Below, one piece after another: positions 11,584 through 63,620 of a DNA stretch of 64,000 nt. This DNA is from Paludibacteraceae bacterium (GTDB lineage Bacteria > Bacteroidota > Bacteroidia > Bacteroidales > Paludibacteraceae), in the NCBI GenBank assembly GCA_034090015.1, contig JAXDTJ010000018.1:41740-105739 (forward strand). Direction: 5' to 3'. The notes beneath the pieces are model-generated. The model saw nothing but the letters and a program-made list of their open reading frames with translations. It did no database searches and was not told the DNA's origin. How positions within the stretch are numbered: position 1 is the first letter of the stretch; each line of letters opens with the position of its first letter. A program made the position numbers and the translations under genes.

Positions 11584-11671
11584 AATTAAGAATTATGAAT
11601 TAAGAATTAAGAGCGGCTTACGCCAACGGGATAACCACTGCCTCTTAATTCATAATTCTTAATTCTTAATT
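11584..11671. repeat. TTAAGAATTATGAA-word hairpin between rpmF and rluB
   Basis: Left arm AATTAAGAATTATGAATTAAGAATTAAGAG, 29-nt GC-rich loop, right arm CTCTTAATTCATAATTCTTAATTCTTAATT. Confidence 0.85.
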
Positions 11672-11683
11672 CTCAACATTCAC

Positions 11684-11869
11684 TTACGCTTCTGCTGCCT
11701 GCTCGATAGCCAGTTTGCCACGATAGTAGCCGCAAGAGGGGCATACGGTGTGGTAGATGTAGTGTGCACCACAGTTCGGGCAAATAGCCAATGCAGGTAC
11801 AATCAGTTTGTCATGCGTACGACGTTTCGCTTGTCTGGTGTGCGATTGTCTTCTTTTAGGATGTGCCAT
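11684..11869 (-). CDS. rpmF: 50S ribosomal protein L32
   Basis: MAHPKRRQSHTRQAKRRTHDKL start, CPNCG...CPSCG zinc ribbon, 61 aa. Confidence 0.95.
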   Translation of the reverse strand: MAHPKRRQSHTRQAKRRTHDKLIVPALAICPNCGAHYIYHTVCPSCGYYRGKLAIEQAAEA

Positions 11870-11947
11870 AGTTGTGTTATAATTTTACAGAATAATGTTA
11901 TACGTTTTGACTTGCCGCCTTCAAGTTAGTAGCCACGCAGAATAGCC

Positions 11948-12397
11948 CTATTCCTTGTCCTTCGGTTCGTCTATATCTTCATCCTCCGGCATGGTACAAA
12001 GGTGGTCTTGGAGAAGAGCATCCATTTGCGGATTACAACCACCGGCTTGGTGACTATGCACCAGCGGAAGATTCACAATTACAAGTTCATACGCCAGCCA
12101 CTCCAAGTCGAGCATCTCTGTGCCTTCGTCCATCTCCATATCGTCCTCGGCATCCACTGCCACGTCCATCGGGTCAAGACAACGGTCGCATGTAACTTGC
12201 ACCACACCACAGACTTTGATACGAAGGTCAAAGTCCTGCTCTCGGAGAGCCAACTCCGCTTTTGCCTGCACATTTCCGCCGAGCACTTCACTTTTCTCTA
12301 CACTTTGAAAGTACGCGCTATCTAACTCATAATCAAAGGAATAGTTACCTATTTCCAATTTAGAGAGCTCGATAATATGTGGCTTTTGTATAGGCAT
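11948..12397 (-). CDS. yceD: YceD/DUF177 family protein
   Basis: 149-aa acidic protein with a CDRCL motif directly upstream of rpmF, which is the canonical yceD-rpmF pairing. Confidence 0.8.
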   Translation of the reverse strand: MPIQKPHIIELSKLEIGNYSFDYELDSAYFQSVEKSEVLGGNVQAKAELALREQDFDLRIKVCGVVQVTCDRCLDPMDVAVDAEDDMEMDEGTEMLDLEWLAYELVIVNLPLVHSHQAGGCNPQMDALLQDHLCTMPEDEDIDEPKDKE

Positions 12398-12413
12398 AAC
12401 GCGAAATCGGCTG

Positions 12414-12421
12414 CAAAATTA
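12414..12421 (-). promoter_or_regulatory. -7 box TAATTTTG for yceD-rpmF-rluB
   Basis: TAnnTTTG on the minus strand, 17 nt upstream of the yceD ATG. Confidence 0.4.
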
Positions 12422-12497
12422 CTACTTTTTTTTGAAACTCACAAACTTTTCCGCAAAAAAAAACGCACGGATATTTGCATAGTTCGTTTTTTTTGTG

Positions 12498-12505
12498 TAC
12501 CTTTG
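12498..12505 (+). promoter_or_regulatory. -7 box TACCTTTG for glucokinase-deacetylase
   Basis: TAnnTTTG 81 nt before the ATG at 12587. Confidence 0.45.
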
Positions 12506-12535
12506 CGGGCGTTTTAAGCATTTTTTGGGCAAAAA

Positions 12536-12562
12536 ATCGTAATTCGTAAATCGTAAATCATT
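12536..12562. repeat. CGTAA(A/T)T word tract in glucokinase leader
   Basis: AAATCGTAATTCGTAAATCGTAAATC. Confidence 0.85.
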
Positions 12563-12586
12563 CTAACACTTAATACATTATCATTT

Positions 12587-13546
12587 ATGGAAAAACCTTA
12601 TGTCTTAGGGCTTGATATGGGAGGTACGAACTCCGTATTGGGCATCGTGGATGCCAGGGGACATGTGCTGGCACGTACATCCATCAAAACACAAGCGTAT
12701 GCAAAGATTGAAGATTATGTGAACGCTTTGTATGAAGAGGCGTTGAAAATCATTGAGCCCGTTGGCGGTATTGAGATGTTCCGCGGCATTGGTGCCGGCG
12801 CGCCGAATGCTAACTACTACTCGGGAAATATTGAGTATGCAGCCAACCTGCCATGGAAAGGTATCGTTCCTTTCGCTGAACTGATGACAGCAAAGTTCGG
12901 TATCCCCTGCCGTATTACCAACGATGCCAACGCGGCTGCGATGGGAGAGATGGCGTACGGTGCTGCACGCGGCATGAAGAACTTCATCATGATTACTCTC
13001 GGCACCGGCGTAGGCTCCGGTATTGTGATTGACGGAAAGTTGGTCTATGGACACGATGGTTTTGCCGGTGAGTTAGGGCATACCAAGATCGTTCGCGGCG
13101 AGAACGCACGTCTCTGCGGCTGCGGACACAAAGGCTGCTTGGAGGCGTATGCTTCGGCTACGGGCGTAGCACGCACCGCACGCGAAATAGTGATGAACAC
13201 CAACGAGCCTACACTCCTGCGCAACTTAGAGCCCGAGAGTATCACCTCGAAGGATGTCTTCGACGCCGCTGAGCAAGGCGACGAGGTGGCTAAGCGTATC
13301 TTCGACGAGACGGGCAAGATGCTCGGACAGAAGTTCGCTGACTTCGTGGCATTCTCCGCACCTGAGGCGATTATCCTCTTCGGAGGCATGACCAAGTGCG
13401 GACACTATATCCTCGACCCCATCGTGAAGACGATGAACGAAGATGTGCTCCCCATCTGGCAAAACAAAGTGAAAGTGATGTTCTCTGACTTGAAAGAGGC
13501 AGACGCTGCCGTGCTCGGTGCTTCGGCATTGGCATGGGGGGAATAA
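12587..13546 (+). CDS. ROK family glucokinase
   Basis: LGLDMGGTN ATP-binding N-terminus, GELGH, and Zn motif CGCGHKGCLEAYAS. Confidence 0.85.
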   Translation: MEKPYVLGLDMGGTNSVLGIVDARGHVLARTSIKTQAYAKIEDYVNALYEEALKIIEPVGGIEMFRGIGAGAPNANYYSGNIEYAANLPWKGIVPFAELMTAKFGIPCRITNDANAAAMGEMAYGAARGMKNFIMITLGTGVGSGIVIDGKLVYGHDGFAGELGHTKIVRGENARLCGCGHKGCLEAYASATGVARTAREIVMNTNEPTLLRNLEPESITSKDVFDAAEQGDEVAKRIFDETGKMLGQKFADFVAFSAPEAIILFGGMTKCGHYILDPIVKTMNEDVLPIWQNKVKVMFSDLKEADAAVLGASALAWGE

Positions 13547-13550
13547 GACC

Positions 13551-14189
13551 ATGGTGAGACTGCTTTATCAATTCCCTATGTGGTGGCAGAAGATGTACAG
13601 AACCGCAACATGGCGCATACAGCCTGAGCGCAAAGCCGTCTATCTGACCTTCGACGACGGACCAATACCTGAGGTAACCCCTCGGGTATTGGACGTTTTA
13701 CGCAAGTACCATGTCAAAGCCACCTTCTTCATGGTGGCGGACAACGTGCGCAAACACCCGGAGGTCTATCGGCAAGTGGTAGCAGAAGGGCACTCCGTCG
13801 GCAACCATACTTTCCATCATGTGAAAGGCATGCGTCTCCCCACCTCTGCTTACCTGCGCGAGGTGGATAAAGCAGCCGCCCTCTTGGGCAACACCCGCCT
13901 CTTTCGACCGCCTTATGGCAGGACATGGGTCTGGCAACGCAAAGCCCTGCTGCAACGCGGATACAAGATTTACCTGTGGGACGTGCTCACGCACGATTAC
14001 CACAAGAAATACTCGCCCGAGCGCATGCTTTCTATCATCAAAACTCTCACCCGCAACGGCAGTATCATCAACTTTCACGACTCTTTGAAATCCAACGAGC
14101 GCATGCTCCAAGTCCTTCCTCAAGCCATCGAATGGCTCCAAGCCGAAGGCTACGACATACTGCCGATAACTCCAAAAGACGGTAAGTAA
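13551..14189 (+). CDS. polysaccharide deacetylase (NodB homology domain)
   Basis: YLTFDDGP, GNHTFHH and RPPYG motifs. I prefer the ATG at 13551 over 13518 because it avoids overlap with the upstream gene. Confidence 0.8.
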   Translation: MVRLLYQFPMWWQKMYRTATWRIQPERKAVYLTFDDGPIPEVTPRVLDVLRKYHVKATFFMVADNVRKHPEVYRQVVAEGHSVGNHTFHHVKGMRLPTSAYLREVDKAAALLGNTRLFRPPYGRTWVWQRKALLQRGYKIYLWDVLTHDYHKKYSPERMLSIIKTLTRNGSIINFHDSLKSNERMLQVLPQAIEWLQAEGYDILPITPKDGK

Positions 14190-14223
14190 CTTTTTAACGT
14201 ATCATTCTCACTTGCTTTCCTTT

Positions 14224-14348
14224 CAACATATAATTACCGTATAATTAACCATTAATTTTTCTTTGCTGAATTATTAGGAATACATACACGTAGAAATGTC
14301 CTCAATGAAAATAATTAATGAATAATTACACGTTAATTATATGTTAAA
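14224..14348. repeat. ACATATAATTACCGTATAATTAACC-word hairpin
   Basis: The left arm is ~85 % identical over ~50 nt to 56661-56712. The right arm is an imperfect complement (TTAATTATATGTT). Confidence 0.7.
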
Positions 14349-14464
14349 ATGTAAATTGGCAATTACACGTTAAATGTACTACATTACCTATCATACACGT
14401 CAATTAAACGTGAAATGTATCACACCTTGATTATATGTTAGAAGTTGATTTGCACCGATCTCCA

Positions 14465-16330
14465 ATGCGGCTCATCGCATTCTCCCTGCTGTTGCTGTTT
14501 TTCTCTTCGTGTGCCAACCGAGGGATTGGACCGCAGGGAGGACCCAAAGACACTATCCCCCCGCGGATGGTGAAAGAGCAACCGCTGAACCAGTCCGTCA
14601 ACTTCCACGGAAAGAAGATAGAAATCACCTTCAACGAGTATCTGCAACTCGATAACATCCAGCAGAATCTGCTTGTCTCTCCGCCGCAGCAAGTGTCTCC
14701 TATCGTGAAAGCCGTCGGCAAGAAAGTAACCGTGGAGATGCAGGAAGACCTCATCGACTCCACTACCTACACCCTTGACTTCGGCAACGCTATCTGCGAC
14801 TATACAGAGAAGAACCCCTTGCGCGGCTATGTGTTTGCCTTTTCCACAGGCGACCGCATTGACTCTATGGAGGTCTATGGGCGTGTTGCCAATGCCGAGG
14901 ACCTCAACCCCGTCTCGGGACTGATGGTCGGACTGCAAGCCAACCTCCATGATAGCGCTTTCTCCACCCTGCCTTTCACCCGCGTAGCGCGCTCCGACTC
15001 CTTGGGCGAGTTCGGTATTCAGAACCTGCGCAACGGCGTTTACCGTCTTTATGCCCTCCAAGACCAGAGCCGAGACTTCCTATACCAGCCCGGCGAGGGA
15101 CTGGCGTTCGCCGACTCACTCGTCATACCCGAATACGAGACAGAAATCGTCTTCGACACAATATGGAAAGAACTCGCCGATACCATCGATTCCCTCGCGT
15201 CGGTGCCACAAATCGACACCATCCTGACTATCCAAAACACCTATGTAGGCCCCGCGGACTTGCTGCTCTGGTTCTTCAAGGAAGACAAGCAACGCCACTA
15301 TTTCCAGCGTGTGTACCGCGATGAGCCGCATATCATCAAGTTGCAGTTCTCCGCGCCGCAAGACAGCCTCCCCGCTCTGCGCGCCTTGCCGCCCTCTGCC
15401 ATGGACTCCACGCGCGCCGACAGCCTGTGGACGGACCCGTGGGCATACACCCTCCTCCAAGCCAACCCCACGCGCGACACCCTCGTCTATTGGCTCACCG
15501 ACTCCATCGCCATCCGCCAAGACACCATCTATCTGGAGATGACTTACCTCAAGTCCGACTCCCTATATAACCTCGTGCCGCAGATCGATACCGTCTCCGC
15601 CATCTACCGTGCACCGCGCATGACCCAGAAAGCCAAAGAGGCGCAGGAGAAGAAAGCCCGCGAGCGCAAACTCGATCTCAAGAGCAATGCGAAAGACAAG
15701 TTCGAAGTGTACGACACGCTATGCGTCGTCTCTGCTTTCCCAATCGACTCTATCTACACCGACAGCATTCGCCTCTACGAGAAGCAAGACACCCTGCTCA
15801 TAGACAAGCCCTTCACGCTCTGCCAAAAGGATGTGATGAGTTTCCAAATCATCGCCCCCTTGCAGCAAGGTAAGCAGTATGAGTTGCACCTCGACTCTGC
15901 TGCTGTGCGCGACATCTATGGCGTGGCGAGCGACAAGAAGAAGTTCACGCTCAAACTGAAGACCGCCGAAGACTACTCCACTTTGCTCATCCGCCTGCCG
16001 GACTACGACCCGCGTATCCGCTTGCAGTTGCTCAGCGAGAAAGACCAGCCTGTGCGCGAGTTGCCTGCCCGCGAGGAGGGGACGAAGTTCGAGTACCTCG
16101 CTCCCAAGACCTATTACCTGCGCCTCTATTTCGACTTGAACGGCGACGGCAGGTGGACGACGGGCGACTGGGCGACTAAGCGACAACCCGAGCCGGTCTA
16201 TTATTTCCCTGCTAAACTCAGCCTGCGCGCCAACTGGGACTTCGAGGAGCGTTTCGACTACCTCGCCCGTCCCCAACTGGAAGCCAAGCCCCGCGAACTC
16301 CGCAAAGACGCCACTGCTACGAAGAAATAA
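14465..16330 (+). CDS. Ig-like domain lipoprotein, function unknown
   Basis: Lipoprotein signal MRLIAFSLLLLFFSSC from the ATG at 14465. The N-terminal DTIPP...ITFNEYL pattern is Big_5/SbsA-Ig-like. The rest is unassigned. Confidence 0.6.
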   Translation: MRLIAFSLLLLFFSSCANRGIGPQGGPKDTIPPRMVKEQPLNQSVNFHGKKIEITFNEYLQLDNIQQNLLVSPPQQVSPIVKAVGKKVTVEMQEDLIDSTTYTLDFGNAICDYTEKNPLRGYVFAFSTGDRIDSMEVYGRVANAEDLNPVSGLMVGLQANLHDSAFSTLPFTRVARSDSLGEFGIQNLRNGVYRLYALQDQSRDFLYQPGEGLAFADSLVIPEYETEIVFDTIWKELADTIDSLASVPQIDTILTIQNTYVGPADLLLWFFKEDKQRHYFQRVYRDEPHIIKLQFSAPQDSLPALRALPPSAMDSTRADSLWTDPWAYTLLQANPTRDTLVYWLTDSIAIRQDTIYLEMTYLKSDSLYNLVPQIDTVSAIYRAPRMTQKAKEAQEKKARERKLDLKSNAKDKFEVYDTLCVVSAFPIDSIYTDSIRLYEKQDTLLIDKPFTLCQKDVMSFQIIAPLQQGKQYELHLDSAAVRDIYGVASDKKKFTLKLKTAEDYSTLLIRLPDYDPRIRLQLLSEKDQPVRELPAREEGTKFEYLAPKTYYLRLYFDLNGDGRWTTGDWATKRQPEPVYYFPAKLSLRANWDFEERFDYLARPQLEAKPRELRKDATATKK

Positions 16331-16354
16331 CCTTCAGCCTAATCTGTAATCAAA

Positions 16355-17479
16355 ATGGGGTGGTATCTTTTTATATTATTTCCAGCGGTGGTCGCCATCA
16401 TATGGGCAGTGGTAGTGAAAGTGCGTGCGAGAGCGTGGCGCGACGTGGTGGATATGCTTATCTGCGCCGTGGCGACGCTGGTCAACGCATTTTTTGTTTG
16501 CTACGCTTTCTCACCGAGCAGCCTGCCGCCCTGCGGACTGGTGATTAGGCAACTGCTCTCGGCGGTTATCCTGCCGGTTGCCTATATCTTTTTTGCCCGC
16601 CAACTCTCTATGGGCAAGTGGGACACCGTCATCACCACGCTCCTGTGGTCGTCGCTGCTGCTTTTCATCCTCCCGGGAGGGGTCATCTTCTTGGACGAAA
16701 CGCCCTTGAACACCGGCGTGGTCTGCCGCTGGGTGTACTATTGCGCCTACCATGGGCGTATCCTCTTCCGCTGCGAGACGGCGGATATCGTGCTGTGTTT
16801 GCAGACTTGGCTCGTGGTAATCAGTTATATTGACATCGCGCGAATCCTGCGCAAGTACGGCATGCGTGCCTCGGGGAAGTTGCGCTATTTCATGGTGTGG
16901 TGTACCGCAATGATGTTGTTCATCTTTTCCTGCGCACTGAGCGATATCCTCTATGCAGGCGGTCGCGAGTGGTTGTTCTTCGTGCTCTATTCCCTGCTCC
17001 TCACCTCTATCTACGGCTTGCTGGCACTGAATTTCGACCTGCGCCCCTACCTGCAACAGATGGTGGCGGAGGAAGAAAATGTGAAGGAATACACGGTGCA
17101 AATAGGGCAGCCCGTGGATGCCGAAAAGATGATTATCCAGACCCAATGCTTGGCGGAGCAGGTGCGCGTGCTGATGGAGCAGGAGCAGGTATGGCTCCAC
17201 CCCGGCTACAGTTCCAAAGACGCTATCGCCGCACTGGGCACCAACCGCACGTATTTCGCCCGCATGATGATGACGGAGTTCGGCTGCCGCTTCGGAGACT
17301 TGGTCTTGAAGCGTCGCATGGACGAGGCACGCCGCCTCTTGAGCACCACCGACATGACCATCACCGAGGTGGCAGATAAAAGCGGATTCGGCGACGCGGG
17401 CACTATGACCGCCCGCTTCAAGGAGATAGAGCATATCACGCCCGCTAAGTGGAGACAAAAAGCAAAACGGCAGTATTAG
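16355..17479 (+). CDS. membrane-anchored AraC/XylS family transcriptional regulator
   Basis: The first ~230 aa are a run of hydrophobic helices. The C-terminus is an AraC HTH pair (TYFARMMMTEFG..., ITEVADKSGFGDAGTMTARFKE). Confidence 0.75.
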   Translation: MGWYLFILFPAVVAIIWAVVVKVRARAWRDVVDMLICAVATLVNAFFVCYAFSPSSLPPCGLVIRQLLSAVILPVAYIFFARQLSMGKWDTVITTLLWSSLLLFILPGGVIFLDETPLNTGVVCRWVYYCAYHGRILFRCETADIVLCLQTWLVVISYIDIARILRKYGMRASGKLRYFMVWCTAMMLFIFSCALSDILYAGGREWLFFVLYSLLLTSIYGLLALNFDLRPYLQQMVAEEENVKEYTVQIGQPVDAEKMIIQTQCLAEQVRVLMEQEQVWLHPGYSSKDAIAALGTNRTYFARMMMTEFGCRFGDLVLKRRMDEARRLLSTTDMTITEVADKSGFGDAGTMTARFKEIEHITPAKWRQKAKRQY

Positions 17480-17505
17480 ATTCTGATAATCAGCGTTTTG
17501 TAATA

Positions 17506-17548
17506 AAAACATGGAAATCGTCAATTGACGTTTTCCATGTTTTTTTTG
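17506..17548 (+). terminator. terminator after AraC-like gene
   Basis: AAACATGGAAA-TCGTCAATTGACG-TTTCCATGTTTTTTTT. The 3' half plus T-run is then duplicated (17534-17575). Confidence 0.7.
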
Positions 17549-17603
17549 ATGATTCCCATGTTTTTTTTGATGATTTCTGTGCGATATTTACCAAAAAAAG
17601 TAG

Positions 17604-17611
17604 TATCTTTG
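17604..17611 (+). promoter_or_regulatory. -7 box TATCTTTG for symporter operon
   Basis: AAAAAAAGTAGTATCTTTGC context, 276 nt before the ATG at 17888. Confidence 0.45.
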
Positions 17612-17640
17612 CAGACTTTTTGAGAAAATTAGACCGTCTT

Positions 17641-17880
17641 GCGACTGTCAGACCGCTGTCCGACTGATTTACTGGGGACGCGGGCGGCTCGCCCGCGGGC
17701 CCGTCGGGCCCGAACAGCGGGTGTGGGCCATGTGATATCCTCCACGGCTTGCGCCTTGCCCGGGGGCGAGACGCCCGCGTCCCCAGTAAATCAGTCGTTC
17801 AGCGCAGCGGTCGGACAATGAAATGGTCCCGATAAATCGGGATGCAAGCATCTGACAGCGAAGCGGTCAGAAACATCTGT
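17641..17880. repeat. composite element: CAGACCGC-word palindrome with nested GC-rich MITE-like insert
   Basis: Perfect 25-bp inverted repeat GACTGATTTACTGGGGACGCGGGCG (17662-17686 / 17772-17796), flanked by GACCGC and GCGGTC words. Confidence 0.8.
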
Positions 17881-17887
17881 TAATCCC

Positions 17888-19090
17888 ATGAGAATCCCTC
17901 GTATTCCTCTTTTAGTCCGTGTGCTGATTGCCATTGCCTTGGGTATCGCTTTCGGCTTGTTCATGCCCGCTTGGGGTGTGCGTATCTTCACCACCTTCAA
18001 CGCTCTGTTCGACCAACTGCTGCGGTTCCTTATCCCGCTGATTATTTTGGGCTTGGTAACACCCGCCATCGCCGATTTGGGCAAGGGCGCATCGCGTCTG
18101 CTCCTGCTCACGGTGGGCATTGCTTACGTGGCGACTGTCCTCTCGGGTTTGTTCGGATACGGCTGCAGCATGCTTATCTTCCCGCATATCATCCACGCTT
18201 GCGAAGGCGAGACAACGGCTGCGGGCGCGGTGCCCGCTTTCCCGCCCTATTTCGAGGTGAGCATTCCGCCGCTCTTCGATGTGATGACGGCGCTTGCCAC
18301 GGCGTTTCTGCTCGGCTTGGGCATTGCCTTCCTTGCGGGCAAAGAGTCGGGCACGGAGGCGGAAGGCGGGCTGAAACGTGCCGCCCGCGAGTTCCAGAGT
18401 ATCGTGGTGCTGGCTATCCAAAAAGTCATCATCCCCTTGCTGCCGCTCTATATCTTCGGTGTCTTCATGAGCATGACCGCTTCGGGCGAGGCGGGCACTA
18501 TCTTGGTGAACTTTGCCGAGGTGATAGCCGTCCTCATCGGGCTCACGCTGGTCATCCTGCTCTTGCAGTATCTGGTTGCGGGCGCGGTGGTCAAGCGTAA
18601 TCCGTTCAAACTGCTCTGGACGATGTCCCCCGCCTATTTCACGGCGTTGGGCTGTTGCAGTTCGGCGGCGACCATCCCCGTAACGCTCAGGCAGACGCTC
18701 CAGAACGGTGTGAACGCCGATGTGGCGGGCTTTGTGGTGCCCCTCTGCGCCACCATCCACATGAGCGGCTCTATCGCGAAAATCACGGGTACCGCCATCG
18801 CCATCATGCTTATGCAGGGCGTACCCTTTGACGCATGGCAGATAGTCGGCTTCGTCCTCATGCTCGCCATCACCATGGTGGCAGCCCCGGGCGTGCCGGG
18901 CGGCTGCGTGATGGCGTCGCTGGGCTTGCTCGGCAGCATGCTGGGCTTCACGGGCGAGCAACAGGCACTCATGATAGCCATCTACATCGCCATCGACTCC
19001 TTCGGCACCGCCTGCAACGTAACGGGCGACGGCGCTATCGCCTTAATTATTGACAAAATACAATCCACTAATAAACTAAAACAATTATGA
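17888..19090 (+). CDS. dicarboxylate/amino acid:cation symporter (DAACS/SDF family)
   Basis: Polytopic membrane protein with SSAATIPV and NVTGDG motifs. Confidence 0.85.
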   Translation: MRIPRIPLLVRVLIAIALGIAFGLFMPAWGVRIFTTFNALFDQLLRFLIPLIILGLVTPAIADLGKGASRLLLLTVGIAYVATVLSGLFGYGCSMLIFPHIIHACEGETTAAGAVPAFPPYFEVSIPPLFDVMTALATAFLLGLGIAFLAGKESGTEAEGGLKRAAREFQSIVVLAIQKVIIPLLPLYIFGVFMSMTASGEAGTILVNFAEVIAVLIGLTLVILLLQYLVAGAVVKRNPFKLLWTMSPAYFTALGCCSSAATIPVTLRQTLQNGVNADVAGFVVPLCATIHMSGSIAKITGTAIAIMLMQGVPFDAWQIVGFVLMLAITMVAAPGVPGGCVMASLGLLGSMLGFTGEQQALMIAIYIAIDSFGTACNVTGDGAIALIIDKIQSTNKLKQL

Positions 19091-19524
19091 AAAAACTATG
19101 TTTCATTGCGGCTACCGTAGTAGCCATGGTGCTGGGAATGACTGGCTGTTTCACAACGGAAGTATCTGATGTAAACATCTATTGCCGAGTGAGTTCCAAT
19201 GCGTCCTCCAGCACTACCAAGCCTGTAACGCCGGGACTCGACGACAGTGAGTTGAAAAGCATTTTCAAAAAACACATGCTGACTTTGGGTGAGCCTTTTG
19301 GTGATGATGGTATCATTATCCGCCGCCAAAACAACGAGAAGAATGTGAAGCAAGCCATCCTCGAAGCGGCGCAGGAAGCCGATGCCGAGGTGAAAGAGAA
19401 GTACGGCAACCCCGTTACCGTAAAGGAGAACTACAAAAGCCTCAAAATGTCGGTCTATTACGACTTCGCCGATAACCCCGAAGTAAAAGTGGTAACCTAT
19501 ATCTACAAAGAAGAAACAGAATAA
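19087..19524 (+). CDS. small lipoprotein, unknown function
   Basis: MKKLCFIAATVVAMVLGMTGC lipobox. An ATGA overlap with the symporter stop suggests translational coupling. Confidence 0.6.
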   Translation: MKKLCFIAATVVAMVLGMTGCFTTEVSDVNIYCRVSSNASSSTTKPVTPGLDDSELKSIFKKHMLTLGEPFGDDGIIIRRQNNEKNVKQAILEAAQEADAEVKEKYGNPVTVKENYKSLKMSVYYDFADNPEVKVVTYIYKEETE

Positions 19525-19535
19525 CCGCTTAATTG

Positions 19536-19692
19536 CGACCGCAGACGCTAAAAGACCTTCTATCGACTGCAAGACCGCGCTTTGCACTGTAAGACTGATA
19601 TACAATTAAATACTGAATAAGTCGGACAGTGCACTGTCGTTCAGCGATAGCGGTCGGATAGTGCAACGGTCGTTCAGCGATAGCGGTCGTAA
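19536..19692. repeat. ~155-bp CAGACCGC-word palindrome after lipoprotein gene
   Basis: GACCGC words on the left, GCGGTC words on the right, centre GACTGATATAC...CTGAATAAGTC. Confidence 0.8.
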
Positions 19693-19705
19693 ACCAAAAT
19701 CAACC

Positions 19706-21289
19706 ATGAACATCCACGAAGAATCCCAACGCTGCTTGTTGTGCGAGAACGCCCCTTGCAGTCAAGCGTGTGCCCACGGCGACCCTGCGCGGGCAGTGCG
19801 CGCCATCCGTTTTGATAACCTCCACGCGGCAGGGCAGTGGTTGCTGCCATGCACCGACCGCGACCTCCAAGCCGCTGAGCAGGCGTGTATCCACTACGAC
19901 CGCTCCATCCGCCTGCGCGAACTCCGCGATGCCTACAAGCAGGAATGTAAACAAAGGTTAGATAACCATCTCCCCCGCCCCGCTTCGTTTATCCCAGTTT
20001 ATCCCGACTTGTCGGGAACCAGTCGGGACGGGGAGGAGAATAGGGGGCGGGGAGAAAATACCTTGTTAGCCTCCCTCCCCTCCCTCGCCATCGACTTCTG
20101 CGGTATCCCCTGCGAGAACCCCTTCTTCCTCGCCTCGTCCGCCATCTGCACCAACTACGAGATGGTCGCCCGCGCCTTCGACGCCGGCTGGGCAGGGGTC
20201 TTCTACAAGACAATCAGCCTCCAAGACATCCGCGAGGTCTCGCCCCGCTTCGACGCCATGCACACCAACGCCGCCAAGGGCGATTTCTACACCCTGCGCA
20301 ACATGGAGCAACTCAGCGAGAACCCCGCCGAGGTGGACTTTGACATCCTCGCCCGACTCAAGCAGAACTACCCCTCGAAAGTCATCGTAGCGAGTATCAT
20401 GGGGCAGACCGAGGAGGAGTGGATTACCCTCGCGAAGATGGCGGAGAAGGCGGGAGCCGATGCCGTGGAACTCAATTTCTCTTGCCCGCAGATGCGCCTC
20501 GCGGGGATGGGTAGCGACGTGGGGCAGAACCCCGAACTGGTTACGTTCTACACCGCCTACGTCAAGCGCAACGTCTCCATCCCCGTCATACCCAAGATGA
20601 CGCCCAACATCACCCATATCACCGAACCCGCGATGGGAGCCTTCTTCGCCGGCGCAGACGCTATCTCGGCTATCAACACCATCAAGTCCGTAACCATGAG
20701 TCCCCGCGCGGAGGTCGCCGACCGCCGCACCGTCTCAGGTTTGTCTGGACGCGCCGTCAAGCCCATCGCCCTGCGCTTCATCGTCGAGATGGCGAAGAAC
20801 CCCCTGATGAAGAACATCCAGTTCAGCGGTATCGGAGGCATAGAGACGTGGCGCGACGCGCTGGAATTCATACAGTTAGGCTGCCGCAACGTGCAGGTGT
20901 GCACCGCCGTTATGCAGTACGGCTACCGTATCATCGATGACCTTACCTTAGGCTTACAATTATATATGTCCGCCCGCGGGCTCACGCGCGTGGAGCAACT
21001 CGTTGGCGAGGAACTGCCCTCGTTCGTAACCCCCACAGACCTCGACCGCGAGACGATGGTCTTCCCCAAGATTGACCGCACGCGCTGTGTCGGCTGCGGG
21101 CGTTGTTTCATCTCTTGCGCCGATGGCGGACACCAAGCCATCACCTTCGATGCCGACCGCCGCCCCCATATCGTGGGTATCAAGTGCGTGGGCTGCCACC
21201 TCTGTCGCCTCGTCTGCCCCACGGGCGCCATCGGCGCGGCGCAACGCATGCCCAAGCACCAACTCCCCCGCACCTCCGACCCCACCTAA
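19706..21289 (+). CDS. PreA/dihydropyrimidine-dehydrogenase-B-like flavoprotein (DHOD-like TIM barrel + Fe-S domains)
   Basis: N-terminal CLLCENAPCSQAC. DHOD-like blocks NPFFLASS, ELNFSCPQ and GIGGI. C-terminal CVGCGRCFISC and CVGCHLCRLVCP ferredoxin motifs. I prefer the ATG at 19706 over the track start at 19661. Confidence 0.75.
   Translation: MNIHEESQRCLLCENAPCSQACAHGDPARAVRAIRFDNLHAAGQWLLPCTDRDLQAAEQACIHYDRSIRLRELRDAYKQECKQRLDNHLPRPASFIPVYPDLSGTSRDGEENRGRGENTLLASLPSLAIDFCGIPCENPFFLASSAICTNYEMVARAFDAGWAGVFYKTISLQDIREVSPRFDAMHTNAAKGDFYTLRNMEQLSENPAEVDFDILARLKQNYPSKVIVASIMGQTEEEWITLAKMAEKAGADAVELNFSCPQMRLAGMGSDVGQNPELVTFYTAYVKRNVSIPVIPKMTPNITHITEPAMGAFFAGADAISAINTIKSVTMSPRAEVADRRTVSGLSGRAVKPIALRFIVEMAKNPLMKNIQFSGIGGIETWRDALEFIQLGCRNVQVCTAVMQYGYRIIDDLTLGLQLYMSARGLTRVEQLVGEELPSFVTPTDLDRETMVFPKIDRTRCVGCGRCFISCADGGHQAITFDADRRPHIVGIKCVGCHLCRLVCPTGAIGAAQRMPKHQLPRTSDPT
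19969..20055. repeat. palindromic element inside the PreA-like gene
   Basis: TCTCCCCCGCCCC ... GGGGGCGGGGAGA arms enclosing ATCCCGACTTGTCGGGAACCAGTCGGGAC. Confidence 0.75.
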
Positions 21290-21292
21290 TAC

Positions 21293-21340
21293 CCACTGGG
21301 GACGCCTCACTGGGGACGCCCCGACAGTGTCGCGGGCGGA
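21293..21340. repeat. ACTGGGGACGC words after the PreA-like gene stop
   Basis: CACTGGGGACGCCTCACTGGGGACGCCCCGACAGTGTCGCGGGCGG, related to 17668 and 63388. Confidence 0.7.
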
Positions 21341-21407
21341 TAGTTCGGAACGAACTAATATCAACTAATAGGGGATAATGAGCCGACGATAAGCCGACAA
21401 TTACGGT

Positions 21408-21447
21408 AAAAAGACGGCAAAAGGACGGCAAAAAGACGGCAAAAGGA
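21408..21447. repeat. GACGGCAAAA(A/G) x3 tandem words
   Basis: AAAAGACGGCAAAAGGACGGCAAAAAGACGGCAAAAGGA. Confidence 0.8.
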
Positions 21448-21511
21448 GCCGAGACGAAGCGGAGAATAACGCAAGTTCTTGCTATTATAAAACTAATTAA
21501 AAAACAAAACA

Positions 21512-21829
21512 ATGAAAAAGATTCAGTTAGCACTTATGTGCGCAGTAGTGGCAGTGCTTTTTGCCTGCAAACCCAATGGTGTCAGTGTGAAGGACATGGA
21601 CGCTACCAAGTTAGACAACACCACCCCCAAATGTTGGGCATATACCATCGTTTATTCCGATGGAAAGACCACAGAAGCCTATTTGTGGGGTACAGAGCAG
21701 GAAATCGTGCTCAAGTTGCAAACAGTCATCAAGAACGCGGAACACACCGTTGCCAACGAGCCCAAGGACATCACCTACCGGGCAGACGGCACCAAAGACG
21801 AACAATCCTGCATGGATAAGAATATGTAA
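21512..21829 (+). CDS. small lipoprotein, unknown function
   Basis: MKKIQLALMCAVVAVLFAC lipobox, 105 aa. Confidence 0.6.
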   Translation: MKKIQLALMCAVVAVLFACKPNGVSVKDMDATKLDNTTPKCWAYTIVYSDGKTTEAYLWGTEQEIVLKLQTVIKNAEHTVANEPKDITYRADGTKDEQSCMDKNM

Positions 21830-22023
21830 GACCGCAGCAAGACCGTCTGACGACTGTCAGACCGCGCTTCGCGCTGAAAGACAAAAGATCGCTCACTTCG
21901 TTCGCTGTCAGACTGATATAGTCTCAAATGCTGAATCAGTCTTTCAGCGAAGCGGTCGTACAGTGAAACGGTCAGACAGCGAAGCGGTCGTTCAGCGAAA
22001 GCGGTCTAACAGCACAGCGGTCA
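21830..22023. repeat. ~190-bp CAGACCGC-word palindrome after second lipoprotein gene
   Basis: Same architecture and centre (GACTGATATAG...CTGAATCAGTC) as 19536-19692. Confidence 0.8.
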
Positions 22024-22034
22024 TAATAATCAAT

Positions 22035-23129
22035 ATGCACTCCCGTAATCTCACATACGATGTAGTCAAAGGTCTTGGTATTCTGTTGGTTATCTTTGCT
22101 CATTTCTCTAACCGTTGGCAGATAGAGAACATCTTTTTTTCTTTTCACATGCCGCTATTCATCTTGGTGGCAGGCTTGTTCGATAAGGGCGAAGCGCATA
22201 TCAAGGACTTTGGCAAGCGCACGCGGCAGAACGCGTGGCGGTTGCTGGTACCCTATTTCGGCACACTCATCTATATGTGCCTAATCTCATGGATATGGGA
22301 TGCCTATACAGGAGAAGAGACACTCAATCGCTTGCCGTTGGTGCGTCTTGTCATTAGCACGGGCGATTTCTATGCCACGCCCTACGGAGAGGCATGGTGC
22401 GGACCGCTGTGGTTCCTCTTCGCGCTCTTCATCACGCGCGAACTCTTCTTCTTGCTACGCTGCGGCATTCGGAACCCCTATGTCGTCTTGCTGGTATGCA
22501 CCGCACTCTCTTTCACGGCGAGTGTGCTTTATCCTTTGCTGGCACCTATGGCATGGAATCCCCTGCCGGGAATAGGCATGCTTATCTTCTATGCCATCGG
22601 CTGGTTTGCCCACCAAAGACATATCCCCGCCATTGCTAAGGTGCTGAGTATCATCGCGTGGCTCGCTGTCATCTATTGGTATTTGTGGGGCGGTGCCGCT
22701 GCCCATTTAGACATGCGCACCTGCCATGCCAATGCGCTGGAGGTGCTCGGTGCTTGCGGCGGCTCGCTATTGCTCTACGGCTTCTGCCGCTATCTTCTTT
22801 CGGCGCTCGAGGAACTGCAGACATGGTGCGAACATCGTGGATGGAAGTTCGCCCCTGCCCCTTTCTGGACATGGTGTGGCAGAAACTCCATGCTCATCCT
22901 CTGCGTGCATAGTTTTGACTTGGTAACCAATAAGTTTGCATTTATCATGACTTGGGCAACGGCTCTCTCTCCGTGGTTGGCTACGCTGGACAGCGCATGG
23001 CTTGCACTGCTCCGTGCGGCTATCACCCTGCTGGTGGCGCTGCTCATAGACTTAGGCTTGCACTTGTTCTACCACCTGCGCGACCGCATCTTCCCCAACA
23101 ACTTGGAGCACATGGCGCAAAGCATATAA
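22035..23129 (+). CDS. acyltransferase family 3 (OafA/YrhL-like) membrane protein
   Basis: About 10 hydrophobic helices. The N-terminal DVVKGLGILLVIFAHF pattern fits this family. The upstream 125 codons of track ORF 21660.. run through a palindromic repeat and are rejected. Confidence 0.7.
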   Translation: MHSRNLTYDVVKGLGILLVIFAHFSNRWQIENIFFSFHMPLFILVAGLFDKGEAHIKDFGKRTRQNAWRLLVPYFGTLIYMCLISWIWDAYTGEETLNRLPLVRLVISTGDFYATPYGEAWCGPLWFLFALFITRELFFLLRCGIRNPYVVLLVCTALSFTASVLYPLLAPMAWNPLPGIGMLIFYAIGWFAHQRHIPAIAKVLSIIAWLAVIYWYLWGGAAAHLDMRTCHANALEVLGACGGSLLLYGFCRYLLSALEELQTWCEHRGWKFAPAPFWTWCGRNSMLILCVHSFDLVTNKFAFIMTWATALSPWLATLDSAWLALLRAAITLLVALLIDLGLHLFYHLRDRIFPNNLEHMAQSI

Positions 23130-26200: not shown

Positions 26201-29200
26201 TTCAGCGGCAGGATACTCTACGAACGCTCCACCATACCGGTGAAGGGCGTGCATTTCTTGGTGAACGGCATACTCGCCACCGATGCCACAGGCAACCCCG
26301 TCGAGACCAACGAGAGCGGTAACTTCCAGTTTGAATTGCCCAAAGCACCGATACGGGTGCAGGCTGTGAAAGACGGACACTGCTTTGCCAACGATGGATA
26401 CCTGATTCTCAACGGAGACACCCTCTTCCAACCTACCGACAACATCGATGCCATTCGCTTCTACGACCGAACGAAGGTACGCCTCATCGGGCGTATTGCC
26501 GGCGGTAACGACCAAGGACTACTCCCCTTAGGCTTCGGACTCAGCCGTAACAACCTCGGCGACCATATCTGCATGGTGCTGGAGTTAGAGGGCGACAACG
26601 CCGCGCAGATAGTCTTCGACCCCTTGGACAAGACCCTCAACCGCCTTGACACCACTATCGTCCATGCCATAGACACCACCCAACATACCGACATTTCCTT
26701 GCAGAGCAAGCGGATAATGATTTACCCCGACCCGGCTTCCGGAGAGTTCTTTGCCGACCTCTTCCCCGTGAAGTACAAAGTAACCCAACTGACCGCACAA
26801 GGCTATAGCACGCTCACCAACGAGAAGACCGCCATGCAGGTCATAGACCTCACCAACAAACTCGACAGCCAATACACCTATTATACTGACACCATTCAAG
26901 GAGGTGCGGTCTCCAGGCCGCACCAAGAGAACTATGACGAAACCATGGTGCGGTTAGGAGACCGCACCTCCTTGGCCTTCCACGACACCTTCCGACATAT
27001 CTACCATAGCCCCATCACCGTAACGCCCGTACAGAGCCTTTACGGCATGGAGGTGGGCTATTTCGGCGTCGAGCGTATCGCTGTGCAACGATGGGACGGA
27101 GAGTCGGAATCCCAGTCGGTAGCACTTGCCAAAGAAGACGGCACCTATGAATACCTCTTCGGAAAACCCATCTTCACCGAAGGCAAATACACCTTCAATA
27201 TCTACGCGCACGAGGACTATTACTATAATGGCGACCGCAACCTCGGCAAGCACGACCGCGTGATGCTCCACGAAGGCGAGGTGAAAATCTATAACGGCAT
27301 GCACTCCAACACAGAAGTGCTGACCGGGACGCTCGATAAAGACGGTGTCTGCCGCAACATGGTCCTCCGCGCGGATTATCCCACCTACACGCGCGTGGAC
27401 GAAGACGCTGCGCGAAACATACAGGTTACTGTAACCTACGAGCGTGAATCCCATACTACCGAGCCTTTGCGGGTGCTGGTATTCGCCGACCGACGAGAGG
27501 GAACAGAGGCAATATCCTCCACCACGGCAGACATCACACTCTACGATATCCTGCGCGACCCGCCCGGCTCCGGCAGTTTCGCTACACTCAGCGCAGGAGC
27601 ATCATACTCCGCATCGAAAACATGGGCGTTATCCGTCAAAGCGGGTGTCACACTCGAGTTCGAAAAAGGAGTAAAATATGCCGGATTTGTGGGAGCGGTT
27701 ACTGCCGTCCCGGGACTGCTATCAGCGCAAAACTATAACATAAACACAACCACACCATTCAGCATTCCGCTGGTGTATAATTATTCCATCAACAAAGATT
27801 ATAGTTATTCCTATTCCACCACCGAGACCATACGAACGGGTAGTGATGCCTACCATGTAGGTGCAAAAGCGGACATATTCATGGGGGCAGTGGAGAATCT
27901 CTATATATCTACTTGCCACGGTATGGCTGTGCTGGACTCGCTGACCTATCTATCGATGGCTGCGCAGAAGGAGAACGGCACCATGCGGCATATCGCTACC
28001 GCACGAAATCTACAAGGTGAACTACGCCACCTCGTGGTAGCGCCTAAACTCACCTTAGACATGGTGCAGGATGCCACTTTCTGCTACACCCAAGAGCACA
28101 TCCTCACCACCGTGATTCCCAAACTGGTAGCCCAACGCAATGCCTTGGTGCTTTGCGTGGACTCAGCGGCGGCAAGAGCAAAAGCCAATCAAGAGAAAAA
28201 GCGTATCTACTACACTACGATGAGCCCTGATAGTGCCGACTTCGCAATAACACGCGGGAAAGGGTACGACTTTGTTGACCCCGTAAATAATACCGATAAT
28301 ACACCCGAGGCGGATAAAGTAGCCGGTATCAACCGTGCCATCCTCGCTTGGACCAACCTGATAAAACAAAACGAGAAGGAGAAGGTCAATGCACAATATA
28401 CCACCGACAAAAAAACATATTCCGTGGCAGGTGGCTCTACGCTTACCTATTCCGAAACGGTAACTTACGGCAGCAAATATAACGAAATACCCTTCAACTT
28501 GGGCGGTTCTGCCGGAGCAAGCAATCTGAGCAATCTATGGGGAAACGCCATCAACAAAACCATACAGACGCTTCTACAGGTAGGTGGAAAGGCTGATTCT
28601 ATCACCATTGAGAGCGAAGCGCCGGGCAGCAAGTTCTCCTTCAGTTTGAAACCCATTGCCAATATAAGCACCCAACCAACTTACGCCGCCTCCGAACAGA
28701 AGTCGCGCACCTATGGTTATACGCTATCCCCAGACCGGTTCGGATATATGGATGTGCAAGTAATGCGCATGAAAGACACGATAAGCGATTTCTACCAAAA
28801 CGCGGAGGATACCCTTGCGTTAACAGGAGAGAAAGCCAATGGTAAACTGCAAAGTTACAGCAGTTTCATCTTCCGCCAGTTGGCAGGTGCCAGCCGCTGC
28901 CCGTGGGAGGATGCCGACTCCACACTCTTCTACCAGCCCGGCACGCCGCTGAGCATTGCCACCGCGCGCTTGGAAAACCCGCAGATAACCATCGCCCAAC
29001 GCGAGATAAGTAATGTGCCTGCCGACCAACGCGCCATCTTCCAAATCGCCCTCAACAACGAGCAGACCTACTACACGGGCATAGGTGCAGCCACCCTGCC
29101 CTTTGAACTGTCGGTTATGCCGGGTAGCAACCCCAACGGACTCAAGATAACCATAGACGGCCAACCCCTCACCTCGGATCCTTTATCCATCACTCTCCCG

Positions 29201-57655: not shown

Positions 57656-57730
57656 GACCGCTCACTGCGTTCGCTGACAGACCGCTACGCTGACAGACCG
57701 CTTTGCTGTCTGACCGCTACGCTGACAGAC
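57656..57730. repeat. GCTGACAGACCGCT words x3-4 between lipid kinase and dut
   Basis: GACCGCTCACTGCGTTCGCTGACAGACCGCTACGCTGACAGACCGCTTTGCTGTCTGACCGCTACGCTGACAGAC. Confidence 0.8.
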
Positions 57731-62913: not shown

Positions 62914-62934
62914 ACTCAATTCCCCCGCCATCAT

Positions 62935-62959
62935 GGAGGTGCGGTCTCCAGGCCGCACC
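62935..62959. repeat. solo arm of the GGAGGTGCGGTCTCC palindromic element
   Basis: 25 of 25 nt identical to 26900-26924. Confidence 0.85.
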
Positions 62960-63020: not shown

Positions 63021-63613
63021 ATGCAGAAACTGACCATACAAGAGATGAATCGCCTATCTGCGGAGGCCTTCCGCGAGGCGGAGAAATTGCCGCTGGTGGT
63101 GGTGCTGGATAATGTCCGCAGCCAACATAATGTAGGTGCTGTGTTCCGTACAGCCGATGCGTTCTTGTTGGAGGGCTTGTACCTCTGCGGCATCACGCCG
63201 AAGCCCGACACGCTGAGTACCAACAACGACCTGCACAAGACGGCGCTCGGCGCAGAGCTGACAGTGGCGTGGCAGGCGTTTGCAGAGACGATGGAGGCGG
63301 TGAAGACACTGCAAGCGAGAGGCTATAAGGTCTATGCTGTAGAGCAGGCGCACCACTCCATCACCCTCGAGCAGGCTGCGCAAGAAATCACTGGGGACGC
63401 GGGCGTCTCGCCCGCGGTGGGGCTGTCCCTCCCCGTCTGCACTAACGGCATCGCCATCGTTCTCGGGCATGAGGTCTTCGGTGTGGCGCAGGAAGTGGTG
63501 GATGCTTGCGACGGCTGCATAGAGATTCCGCAGTATGGCACCAAACACTCGCTGAACGTCAGCGTAACAGCAGGCATCGTCATGTATGCTCTCGCCACCG
63601 CCATGCGGGGTTC

Positions 63614-63620
<7 letters not shown>
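63021..63620 (+). CDS. TrmH/SpoU family RNA 2'-O-methyltransferase
   Basis: VVVLDNVRSQHNVGAVFRTADAF, VLGHEVFGV and IPQYGTKHSLNVSVTAGIVMY motifs. It carries a 16-codon repeat-derived insert. Confidence 0.85.
63388..63435. repeat. GC-rich MITE-arm sequence in-frame in trmH-family gene
   Basis: CTGGGGACGCGGGCGTCTCGCCC (63391-63413) is identical to the reverse complement of 17768-17790. Confidence 0.8.

Follow-up and report, generated by a model that had tools for sequence, protein, structure and literature searches.

A 117-bp doublet of inverted REPs in the leader of a Paludibacteraceae symporter gene, probably a REPIN/BIME-like element

Between an AraC-family regulator gene (16355-17479) and a gene for a symporter of the sodium:dicarboxylate family (SDF; 17888-19090, plus strand; Pfam PF00375, E = 1.6e-86), the genome of a Paludibacteraceae bacterium carries a very GC-rich sequence with perfect inverted ends, itself surrounded by the arms of another palindrome. 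This locus raises the question of whether the GC-rich sequence is a mobile element, of what kind, and whether it came to lie inside a member of a different repeat family. An initial annotation of the window (the whole stretch of 64,000 nucleotides of contig JAXDTJ010000018.1 that was analysed) proposed a MITE-like unit of 135 bp with 25-bp terminal inverted repeats (TIRs), inserted in the centre of the palindrome. That reading was essentially right once corrected – the unit is 117 bp long, its arms are REPs (repetitive extragenic palindromes), there is no target-site duplication, and the element is REPIN/BIME-like.

A perfect inverted repeat in a symporter leader

The element lies between the start codon of the symporter (ATG at 17888) and a Bacteroidota-type -7 promoter motif read from the sequence (TAtcTTTG, 17604-17611, plus strand). 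Motifs of this type (TAnnTTTG) are known from Bacteroidetes promoters, and a promoter role is predicted here. The motif is conserved in the orthologous leaders of the retrieved loci L114, L116, L118 and L115, which would place the element within the 5' leader of the symporter transcript, and the earlier placement in a "symporter leader" is reasonable. Scans for sigma-70 promoters and terminators were uninformative, as this is a Bacteroidota genome. Orthologs of the symporter, 83-98% identical, are found in MAGs of Paludibacteraceae and other Bacteroidales; the nearest genomes are those of two Paludibacteraceae MAGs, LOHA15_bin.007 (98% amino acid identity in the symporter) and LOHA31_bin.011 (97%). 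By its predicted fold, the element would add a very stable GC-rich hairpin to the leader of the symporter mRNA, and any effect that it has on symporter expression is probably incidental.

The region between the AraC-family gene and the symporter promoter also holds a separate palindrome, AATAAAAACATGGAAATCGTCAA / TTGACGTTTTCCATGTTTTTTTT (17502-17568), after which a 21-nt unit, TTGAyGwTTyCCATGTTTTTT, appears as a second direct copy. This palindrome is conserved in the orthologous loci. It could be a terminator for the AraC-family regulator gene, an operator for that gene, or both.

The perfect 25-bp inverted repeat is present where it had been described: GACTGATTTACTGGGGACGCGGGCG occurs at 17662-17686 on the plus strand and its exact reverse complement at 17772-17796. 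No further match to it is found in the window at three or fewer mismatches, nor any in 100 dinucleotide-preserving shuffles, so that none is expected by chance. The inverted repeat stretches imperfectly to 47 nt with 91% complementarity (17654-17700 / 17758-17804), and it is bracketed by an outer pair, TGTCAGACCGCTG / CAGCGGTCGGACA, at 17646-17658 / 17805-17817.

The repeat unit, its family and its host palindrome

The boundaries of the repeat unit were set by alignment with five other full-length copies at unrelated loci. Conservation within the family runs from ACTGGGG to CCCCAGT, which gives a unit of 117 bp (17671-17787, plus strand) rather than 135 bp; the repeat unit is real, and the outer 9 bp on each side of the perfect 25-bp inverted repeat, formerly counted as part of the TIRs, belong to the host palindrome. 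The unit consists of a REP, a hairpin A region, a spacer, hairpin B and an inverted REP. The left REP, ACTGGGGACGCGGGCGgCTCGCCCGCGG (17671-17698, plus strand), forms its own hairpin, CGCGGGCG-GCT-CGCCCGCG, and differs from the family consensus at a single position, with G for T in the loop. The right REP, ACTGGGGACGCGGGCGTCTCGCCCcCGG, is in inverted orientation (17760-17787, minus strand), and a spacer of 61 nt separates the two arms. The position of hairpin A (17699-17718, plus strand) has the family consensus CAGTTCG-GAA(A)-CGAACTG, in place of which the window has GGGCCCG-TC-GGGCCCG. The central spacer (17719-17742, plus strand) is loosely conserved around (G/A)CAA(T/C)G, with GCCATG in the window, and hairpin B (17743-17758, plus strand) is CACGGC-TTGC-GCCTTG in the window against a consensus of CAAGGC-TTGC-GCCTTG.

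The initial annotation had proposed a search for further full-length copies, and five were found. These convergent doublets (L015, L019, L049, L064 and L095) lie at unrelated loci in several related MAGs, with a spacer of 60-61 nt and the same internal modules. The fold of the doublet is predicted to be very stable (z = -9.9 as RNA and -9.7 as DNA). A structure of four local hairpins had 96.6% of its cells paired, with four pairs changed on both sides, while slid controls were 30-40% paired. In mixed doublets, with an A-variant left arm and a G-variant right arm, the pairs between the arms are broken and the hairpin of each arm is kept; the selected structures are thus the local hairpins, and a long stem between the arms was rejected as a selected structure.

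Doublets are located on the 5' side of genes, on their 3' side and within them, which argues against a dedicated function in leaders and for insertion as a unit. Two of them are in frame within coding sequences – one of 39 codons in PriA, immediately before the Walker A motif (L049, 3758-3873), and one in an MmeI-like restriction-modification enzyme, within its methyltransferase domain (L095, 5772-5887) – and these also argue that the doublet inserts as a unit. The doublets are nearly without stop codons in all six frames. No match to the region 17000-22500 was found in Rfam at E <= 1, and a blastn search of PLSDB with a 240-bp region gave no plasmid match. A link to phages was considered and rejected, with only one match in IMG/VR.

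Each arm of the doublet is a copy of a 28-nt self-folding REP-like hairpin, ACTGGGGACGCGGGCGTCTCGCCCGCGG, here called family F1. It folds as CGCGGGCG-TCT-CGCCCGCG, with an 8-bp stem made entirely of G/C pairs and a 3-nt loop. At one stem position, a compensatory change from G-C to A-T was found in 15 copies, against three copies with one-sided changes; self-folding together with compensatory change in the stem is the behavior of a REP. The conserved 5' end is ACTGGGGA; GTAG, the tetranucleotide that marks this end in the REPs of classical RAYTs, was found neither in the unit nor beside it.

A scan of genome contigs with the 19-mer TTTACTGGGGACGCGGGCG gave only three exact matches, which are single and unrelated and have the motif CGCGGGCGAGACGCCCGCGTCCCCAGTA in common. 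The number is this small because the 19-mer includes three bases of the host palindrome, and this result revealed the true boundary of the unit. The 24-mer core GGGGACGCGGGCGTCTCGCCCGCG, by comparison, was found in more than 105 stretches of genome contigs among the matches listed, which come from four MAGs of Paludibacteraceae, several of Bacteroidales and one that is labelled Kiritimatiellae. In the retrieved loci there are at least 170 or so copies of F1 at five or fewer mismatches; the census was seeded with the exact consensus 24-mer and is biased accordingly, so that its counts are lower bounds. Most copies are solo, with about 8% of the sampled copies in doublets, so the main replicating unit may be something other than the doublet. 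Module A or B is attached to about 11% of the REP copies, and others abut a module C hairpin or a sibling REP family, F2. This mosaic joining of F1 to modules A, B, C and F2 resembles the BIMEs of E. coli.

The MAG labelled Kiritimatiellae (RGIG5050, from roe deer rumen) holds dozens of copies of the REP core (at L009, L013, L017 and some 40 further loci); here the core has another 5' end (GTGTAC-TGTGGGGACGC...) and is embedded in a longer unit that is conserved. These copies point either to a RAYT-hairpin system shared across phyla or to a taxonomic mislabel.

Elsewhere in the window, a decayed relic at 21294-21358 (plus strand) consists of two 5' REP fragments (ACTGGGGACGC twice), then CGCGGGCGG, then a hairpin A module, ATAGTTCGGAACGAACTA. 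A solo consensus REP (63391-63418, plus strand) lies in frame in a gene for a SpoU-type methyltransferase (63021-63620) and encodes TGDAGVSPAVG. In SpoU orthologs that are 87-96% identical, the loop between LEQAA(Q/E)E and NGIAIVLGHE varies while the remainder is nearly invariant – the loop may hold the REP-encoded peptide, a tandem NALPSTL repeat or a 35-aa insert, or be short. The copies in PriA, the MmeI-like gene and SpoU are all three read in the same frame (TGDAGVSPA...PAGETPASP). The module C hairpin repeat, GGTGCGGTCTCCAGGCCGCACC, is found in the window at 26899-26969 and 62934-62959, and in related MAGs it is often joined directly to F1, sometimes in 72-nt tandem arrays (for example L063:3096-3267).

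The palindrome that surrounds the doublet has a left arm at 17631-17670 (plus strand), AGACCGTCTTGCGACTGTCAGACCGC TGTCCGACTGATTT, which includes the 9 bp GACTGATTT formerly assigned to the TIR. Its right arm (17788-17871, plus strand), AAATCAGTCGTTCAGCGCAGCGGTCGGA ... CAGCGAAGCGGTCAGA, is made up of CAGCGnnGCGGTC words of about 16 nt that continue up to the region of the start codon. Without a doublet, the left arm occurs at 21841-21865 of the window, and both arms occur in L114, L116 and L118. Uninterrupted palindromes are found in the leader of a DHO_dh/4Fe-4S gene (19536-19692, plus strand) and in that of an acyltransferase gene (21827-22020, plus strand), and the junction sequences of the doublet, GACTGATTT / AAATCAGTC, match the GACTGATAT...GAATCAGTC centres of these two, as had been described. 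The 8-mer CAGACCGC alone is not significantly enriched in the window (6 found, 2.4 expected); the longer clusters of words are real and recur in both uninterrupted palindromes.

These outer palindromes form a separate dispersed family of CAGCGnnGCGGTC words, with members at 19536-19692, 21827-22020 and 57670-57730. They are always in 5' leaders, with the GCGGTC arm beside the start codon, and the number of words varies between relatives. In PUUB51_bin.022, the symporter leader holds five tandem TCGCGGGTCTG units instead (L115:2820-2880).

Four close relatives have a symporter leader with no doublet, and these are empty sites of the kind that the initial annotation had called for. The window reads tgtccgactgattt, then the 117 bp, then aaatcagtcgttcagcg. 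At L114 and L116, where the symporter is 97-98% identical in amino acid sequence, the leader is ...cagaccgc-ttgtcg-ttcagcgcagcggtcgga..., with neither the doublet nor the GACTGAT centre; the base of its palindrome has undergone a deletion at which GTC microhomology is seen. At L115 (90%) there is a different tandem array of words. The most telling is L118 (92%), where the leader is ...tgtcagactgatat-acaaatgc-taaatcattcgttcagcg..., an intact palindrome with its loop (GACTGATAT...AAATCAT); this palindrome is 84% identical to window 21842-21989. The doublet occupies the position of this loop, which upholds the view that one repeat family has inserted into the loop of another, with L118 as the empty site. 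Nesting of this kind recurs, as the doublets of L015 and L019 are also inside GACCGC-word palindromes, beside GACTGAT.

The insertion is not a clean sum of loop plus element: the loop bases of the uninterrupted copies are missing, so that recombination, and not simple transposition, may have been at work. Target-site duplications, for which the initial annotation had proposed a search, did not turn up, and no direct repeats flank any of the six copies.

A candidate transposase and competing explanations

All ORFs in the retrieved loci, about 1 Mb of DNA rich in the family, were searched with phmmer, with E. coli RayT and the RAYT of MAG123 as queries. E. coli RayT gave one match, L034:231-830. 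The protein of this RAYT-like gene, also encoded at L122:2501-3097, matches Pfam Y1_Tnp (PF01797) at E = 8.5e-9, and its best NCBIfam match, REP_Tyr_transpos, scores 73 bits against a cut-off of 80; to judge from its sequence, it is a RAYT, if a divergent member. In a RAYT alignment, the motifs NHVH and RYIDRNP are invariant.

Both MAG123 and the genome nearest to the window, LOHA15_bin.007, carry the gene, flanked in each case on both sides by arrays of a sibling REP, CCGGGTGCGCAGGCGTCCCCGCCTGCT (family F2). F2 has a core, GCAGGCGTC..CGCCTGC, in common with the A-variant of F1, and the two families often adjoin. Two relatives of the gene, P0004 and P0002 (71% and 85% identical), are respectively a truncated gene and another F2-flanked gene. 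In the retrieved loci, the phmmer searches found no RAYT flanked by exact F1, the F2-flanked gene being the only one. The initial annotation had proposed a look for a transposase with matching ends; there is a RAYT in the closest genomes, and the REPs that flank it are of the sibling family F2. No insertion sequence with the same terminal inverted repeats was noticed in the same ca. 1 Mb, which was searched with RAYT queries only. A truncated and apparently chimeric RAYT pseudogene is found at L130:265-765; its N-terminal two-thirds are ca. 71% identical to the MAG123 RAYT and the remainder is unrelated.

A scan of metagenomes with the RAYT alignment found many RAYTs of the same clade, with 40-50% identity, that have inverted flanking REPs with the F1 hairpin (L152, L160, L150, L177, L193 and L136). 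At L152, GGGACCGCGGGCGTCTCGCCCGC is found at 1317 on the plus strand and at 2158 on the minus strand around a RAYT that scores 91.9 bits and passes the NCBIfam cut-off. This explains why a different phylum has a near-identical core: the hairpin goes with the RAYT clade.

The reading that we favor, with a probability of roughly 0.65, is that 17671-17787 is a non-autonomous REP doublet of the REPIN/BIME type, mobilised by a RAYT and inserted without target-site duplication into the loop of a pre-existing palindrome. A RAYT is an HUH-Y1 tyrosine transposase that would recognise the REP hairpin on single-stranded DNA, cut beside it and rejoin it elsewhere; an extruded palindrome loop may offer a favored single-stranded target. 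We infer both that F1 is moved by a RAYT in Paludibacteraceae and that the doublet travels as a single unit.

Support for the assembled sequence comes from independent contigs. Those of L006 and L008 run from the left flank through the right REP, that of L007 runs into the left REP, and that of L004 runs from the right REP onward, so both junctions are supported; the centre of the window copy (17698-17767) is covered by none of them. Contigs assembled from short reads end within the element, as one would expect of a repeat. The L006 contig (Logan, SRR5008275) has 16 mismatches in 6138 nt relative to window 11644-17781, and all 16 are inside the doublet, at 17683-17769 (L006:6049-6126). Twelve of the 16 are A/T in L006 and G/C in the window. 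L006 and L008 carry the family-consensus hairpin A at the symporter locus, where the window has GGGCCCG-TC-GGGCCCG. A k-mer search of the retrieved loci found no other copy with the GC-rich centre of the window, and of two 60-aa ORFs that span the element, checked as a means of confirming this centre, neither is on record. The 16 differences could reflect replacement from an unsampled member of the family, mutagenesis templated by the hairpin, or a locally chimeric assembly.

That the whole element is an artefact, a collapsed or chimeric repeat, is very improbable. Contigs do break inside it, and its centre both lacks an independent contig and differs from the L006/L008 allele, but both junctions and an element of identical length recur in independent samples (L006, L008, L007 and L004), and in the L006 allele the doublet is joined to the unique flank by k-mers that it and the window allele cannot have in common. 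A classical MITE – derived by deletion from an insertion sequence with a DDE transposase and moved through its 25-bp TIRs – would explain the perfect inverted ends, the small size, the multiple copies and the insertion polymorphism. It is nevertheless quite unlikely: none of the six copies has a target-site duplication, the "TIR" combines 16 nt of REP with 9 nt of host palindrome, the arms are mostly solo and self-folding with compensatory changes in the stem, as REPs are, and the only transposase found in the ca. 1 Mb of family-rich DNA, with RAYT queries, is a RAYT. A mechanism with no dedicated transposase, in which palindromic repeats recombine or templates are switched between them (by gene conversion or slipped-strand events), fits several features of the locus, namely a host loop that was replaced and not simply interrupted, the microhomology deletion of L114 and L116, the variable number of outer palindrome words among relatives, and the 16 differences between otherwise identical strains, which suggest replacement from another copy. 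We consider it unlikely, given in-frame copies in PriA and the MmeI-like gene that have no palindromic or homologous context and a RAYT clade that is specifically associated with the F1 hairpin across environments.

There is a similarly small chance that the element is an exapted cis-regulatory or small RNA element, riboswitch-like or stabilising or attenuating the mRNA, which is kept in the symporter leader and is not primarily mobile. It lies 3' of a conserved promoter motif and should be transcribed, its structure is very stable (z about -10), its internal hairpins are conserved with compensatory changes, and REPs and BIMEs of E. coli affect mRNA stability (PMC3733652). Against such a role are the lack of an Rfam match at E <= 1, the four close relatives in which the same leader has no doublet, the copies found 5' of, 3' of and inside genes, and the loss of the consensus hairpin A from the window copy itself. 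A more far-reaching possibility, which we regard as doubtful, is that the doublet is a site of targeted turnover, with replacement or hypermutation in situ driven by a RAYT or by the hairpin, to which the confinement of the 16 differences to the element, their strong bias from A/T to G/C and the swap of one hairpin for another would point, and that different phyla share the REP hairpin and its RAYT clade with almost no change. If this were true, REPs of the CGTC type would gain the dedicated transposase that the literature says they lack.

Comparison with known repeat systems

The GC-rich unit 5' of the symporter is real, but it is a fairly ordinary piece of small bacterial mobile DNA for a REP-rich genome. 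To our knowledge, REP/RAYT systems have been studied almost entirely in Proteobacteria. The uncultured gut and rumen Paludibacteraceae have a rich REP landscape of doublets, mosaics and in-frame intragenic copies, to which one locus adds a clear series of empty sites, along with a candidate RAYT. The elements break short-read assemblies and make leaders and loops hypervariable between near-identical strains, which matters to annotators and to strain-tracking pipelines. A RAYT with two sibling REP families is also a tractable test case for how a Y1 transposase chooses its hairpin.

Correia elements (NEMIS) of Neisseria and other bacterial MITEs are about 100-150 bp long, have inverted ends and are often in 5' leaders. 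Correia elements are co-transcribed and form hairpins in mRNA, and they have TA target duplications, a functional promoter and RNase III sites. The Paludibacteraceae doublet is like them in size, inverted ends, position in a 5' leader and hairpin; unlike them, it has no target duplication that we could see.

CGTC-tagged REPs, which include the Rickettsia palindromic elements (RPE), are found in Bacteroidetes, as head-to-head dimers and inside genes, including genes for replication and repair (Di Nocera, De Gregorio & Rocco 2013, PMC3733652). Their stem is 8-9 bp long and starts with two A-T pairs, their loop has 4-5 nt and their CGTC is terminal, and they are said to lack a dedicated transposase (PMC3733652). 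F1 is similarly a short stem-loop with CGTC at the edge of the stem, head-to-head dimers and copies inside genes (PriA). It falls outside the definition of that family, since its 8-bp stem is all G/C and its loop is 3 nt long, and REPs with the F1 hairpin do flank RAYT genes. Quentin et al. (PMC6006769) describe TnpA-REP subclasses in Bacteroidetes, and the motifs of the RAYT found here, NHVH and YIDRNP, match none of the subclasses given there exactly.

In sequence, the doublet is unrelated to the Y, Z1 and Z2 units of the BIMEs of E. coli. Those elements bind IHF, gyrase and Pol I. The likeness is one of architecture: the elements described here are mosaics of inverted palindromic units and other short motifs, with F1 joined to A, B, C and F2, as in bacterial interspersed mosaic elements (Bachellier et al. 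1994, as cited in PMC6006769).

From REPINs, the doublet differs in several respects. The host is a member of Bacteroidales and not of Proteobacteria, there is no GTAG tag, the 61-nt spacer holds two conserved hairpin modules, most F1 REPs are solo, and the RAYT in the closest genomes is flanked by F2 and not by F1. RAYT transposases of REPs were reportedly treated by Nunvar et al. in 2010. REPINs are two inverted REPs with a spacer, mobilised by RAYTs (Bertels & Rainey 2011, PMC3116915, PMC3337134), and the element of the symporter leader shares with them the pair of inverted REPs, the short spacer, the long hairpin, the many copies per genome, the absence of target-site duplication and the insertion polymorphism between relatives. 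Like REPIN/RAYT systems, the closest genomes also have a Y1 transposase of the single-copy type, flanked by REP arrays. The arms are copies of a self-folding REP that is mostly solo, and not classical TIRs. The likely mobilising enzyme is an HUH transposase of the RAYT type, and "REPIN/BIME-like" is therefore a more accurate description than "MITE-like".
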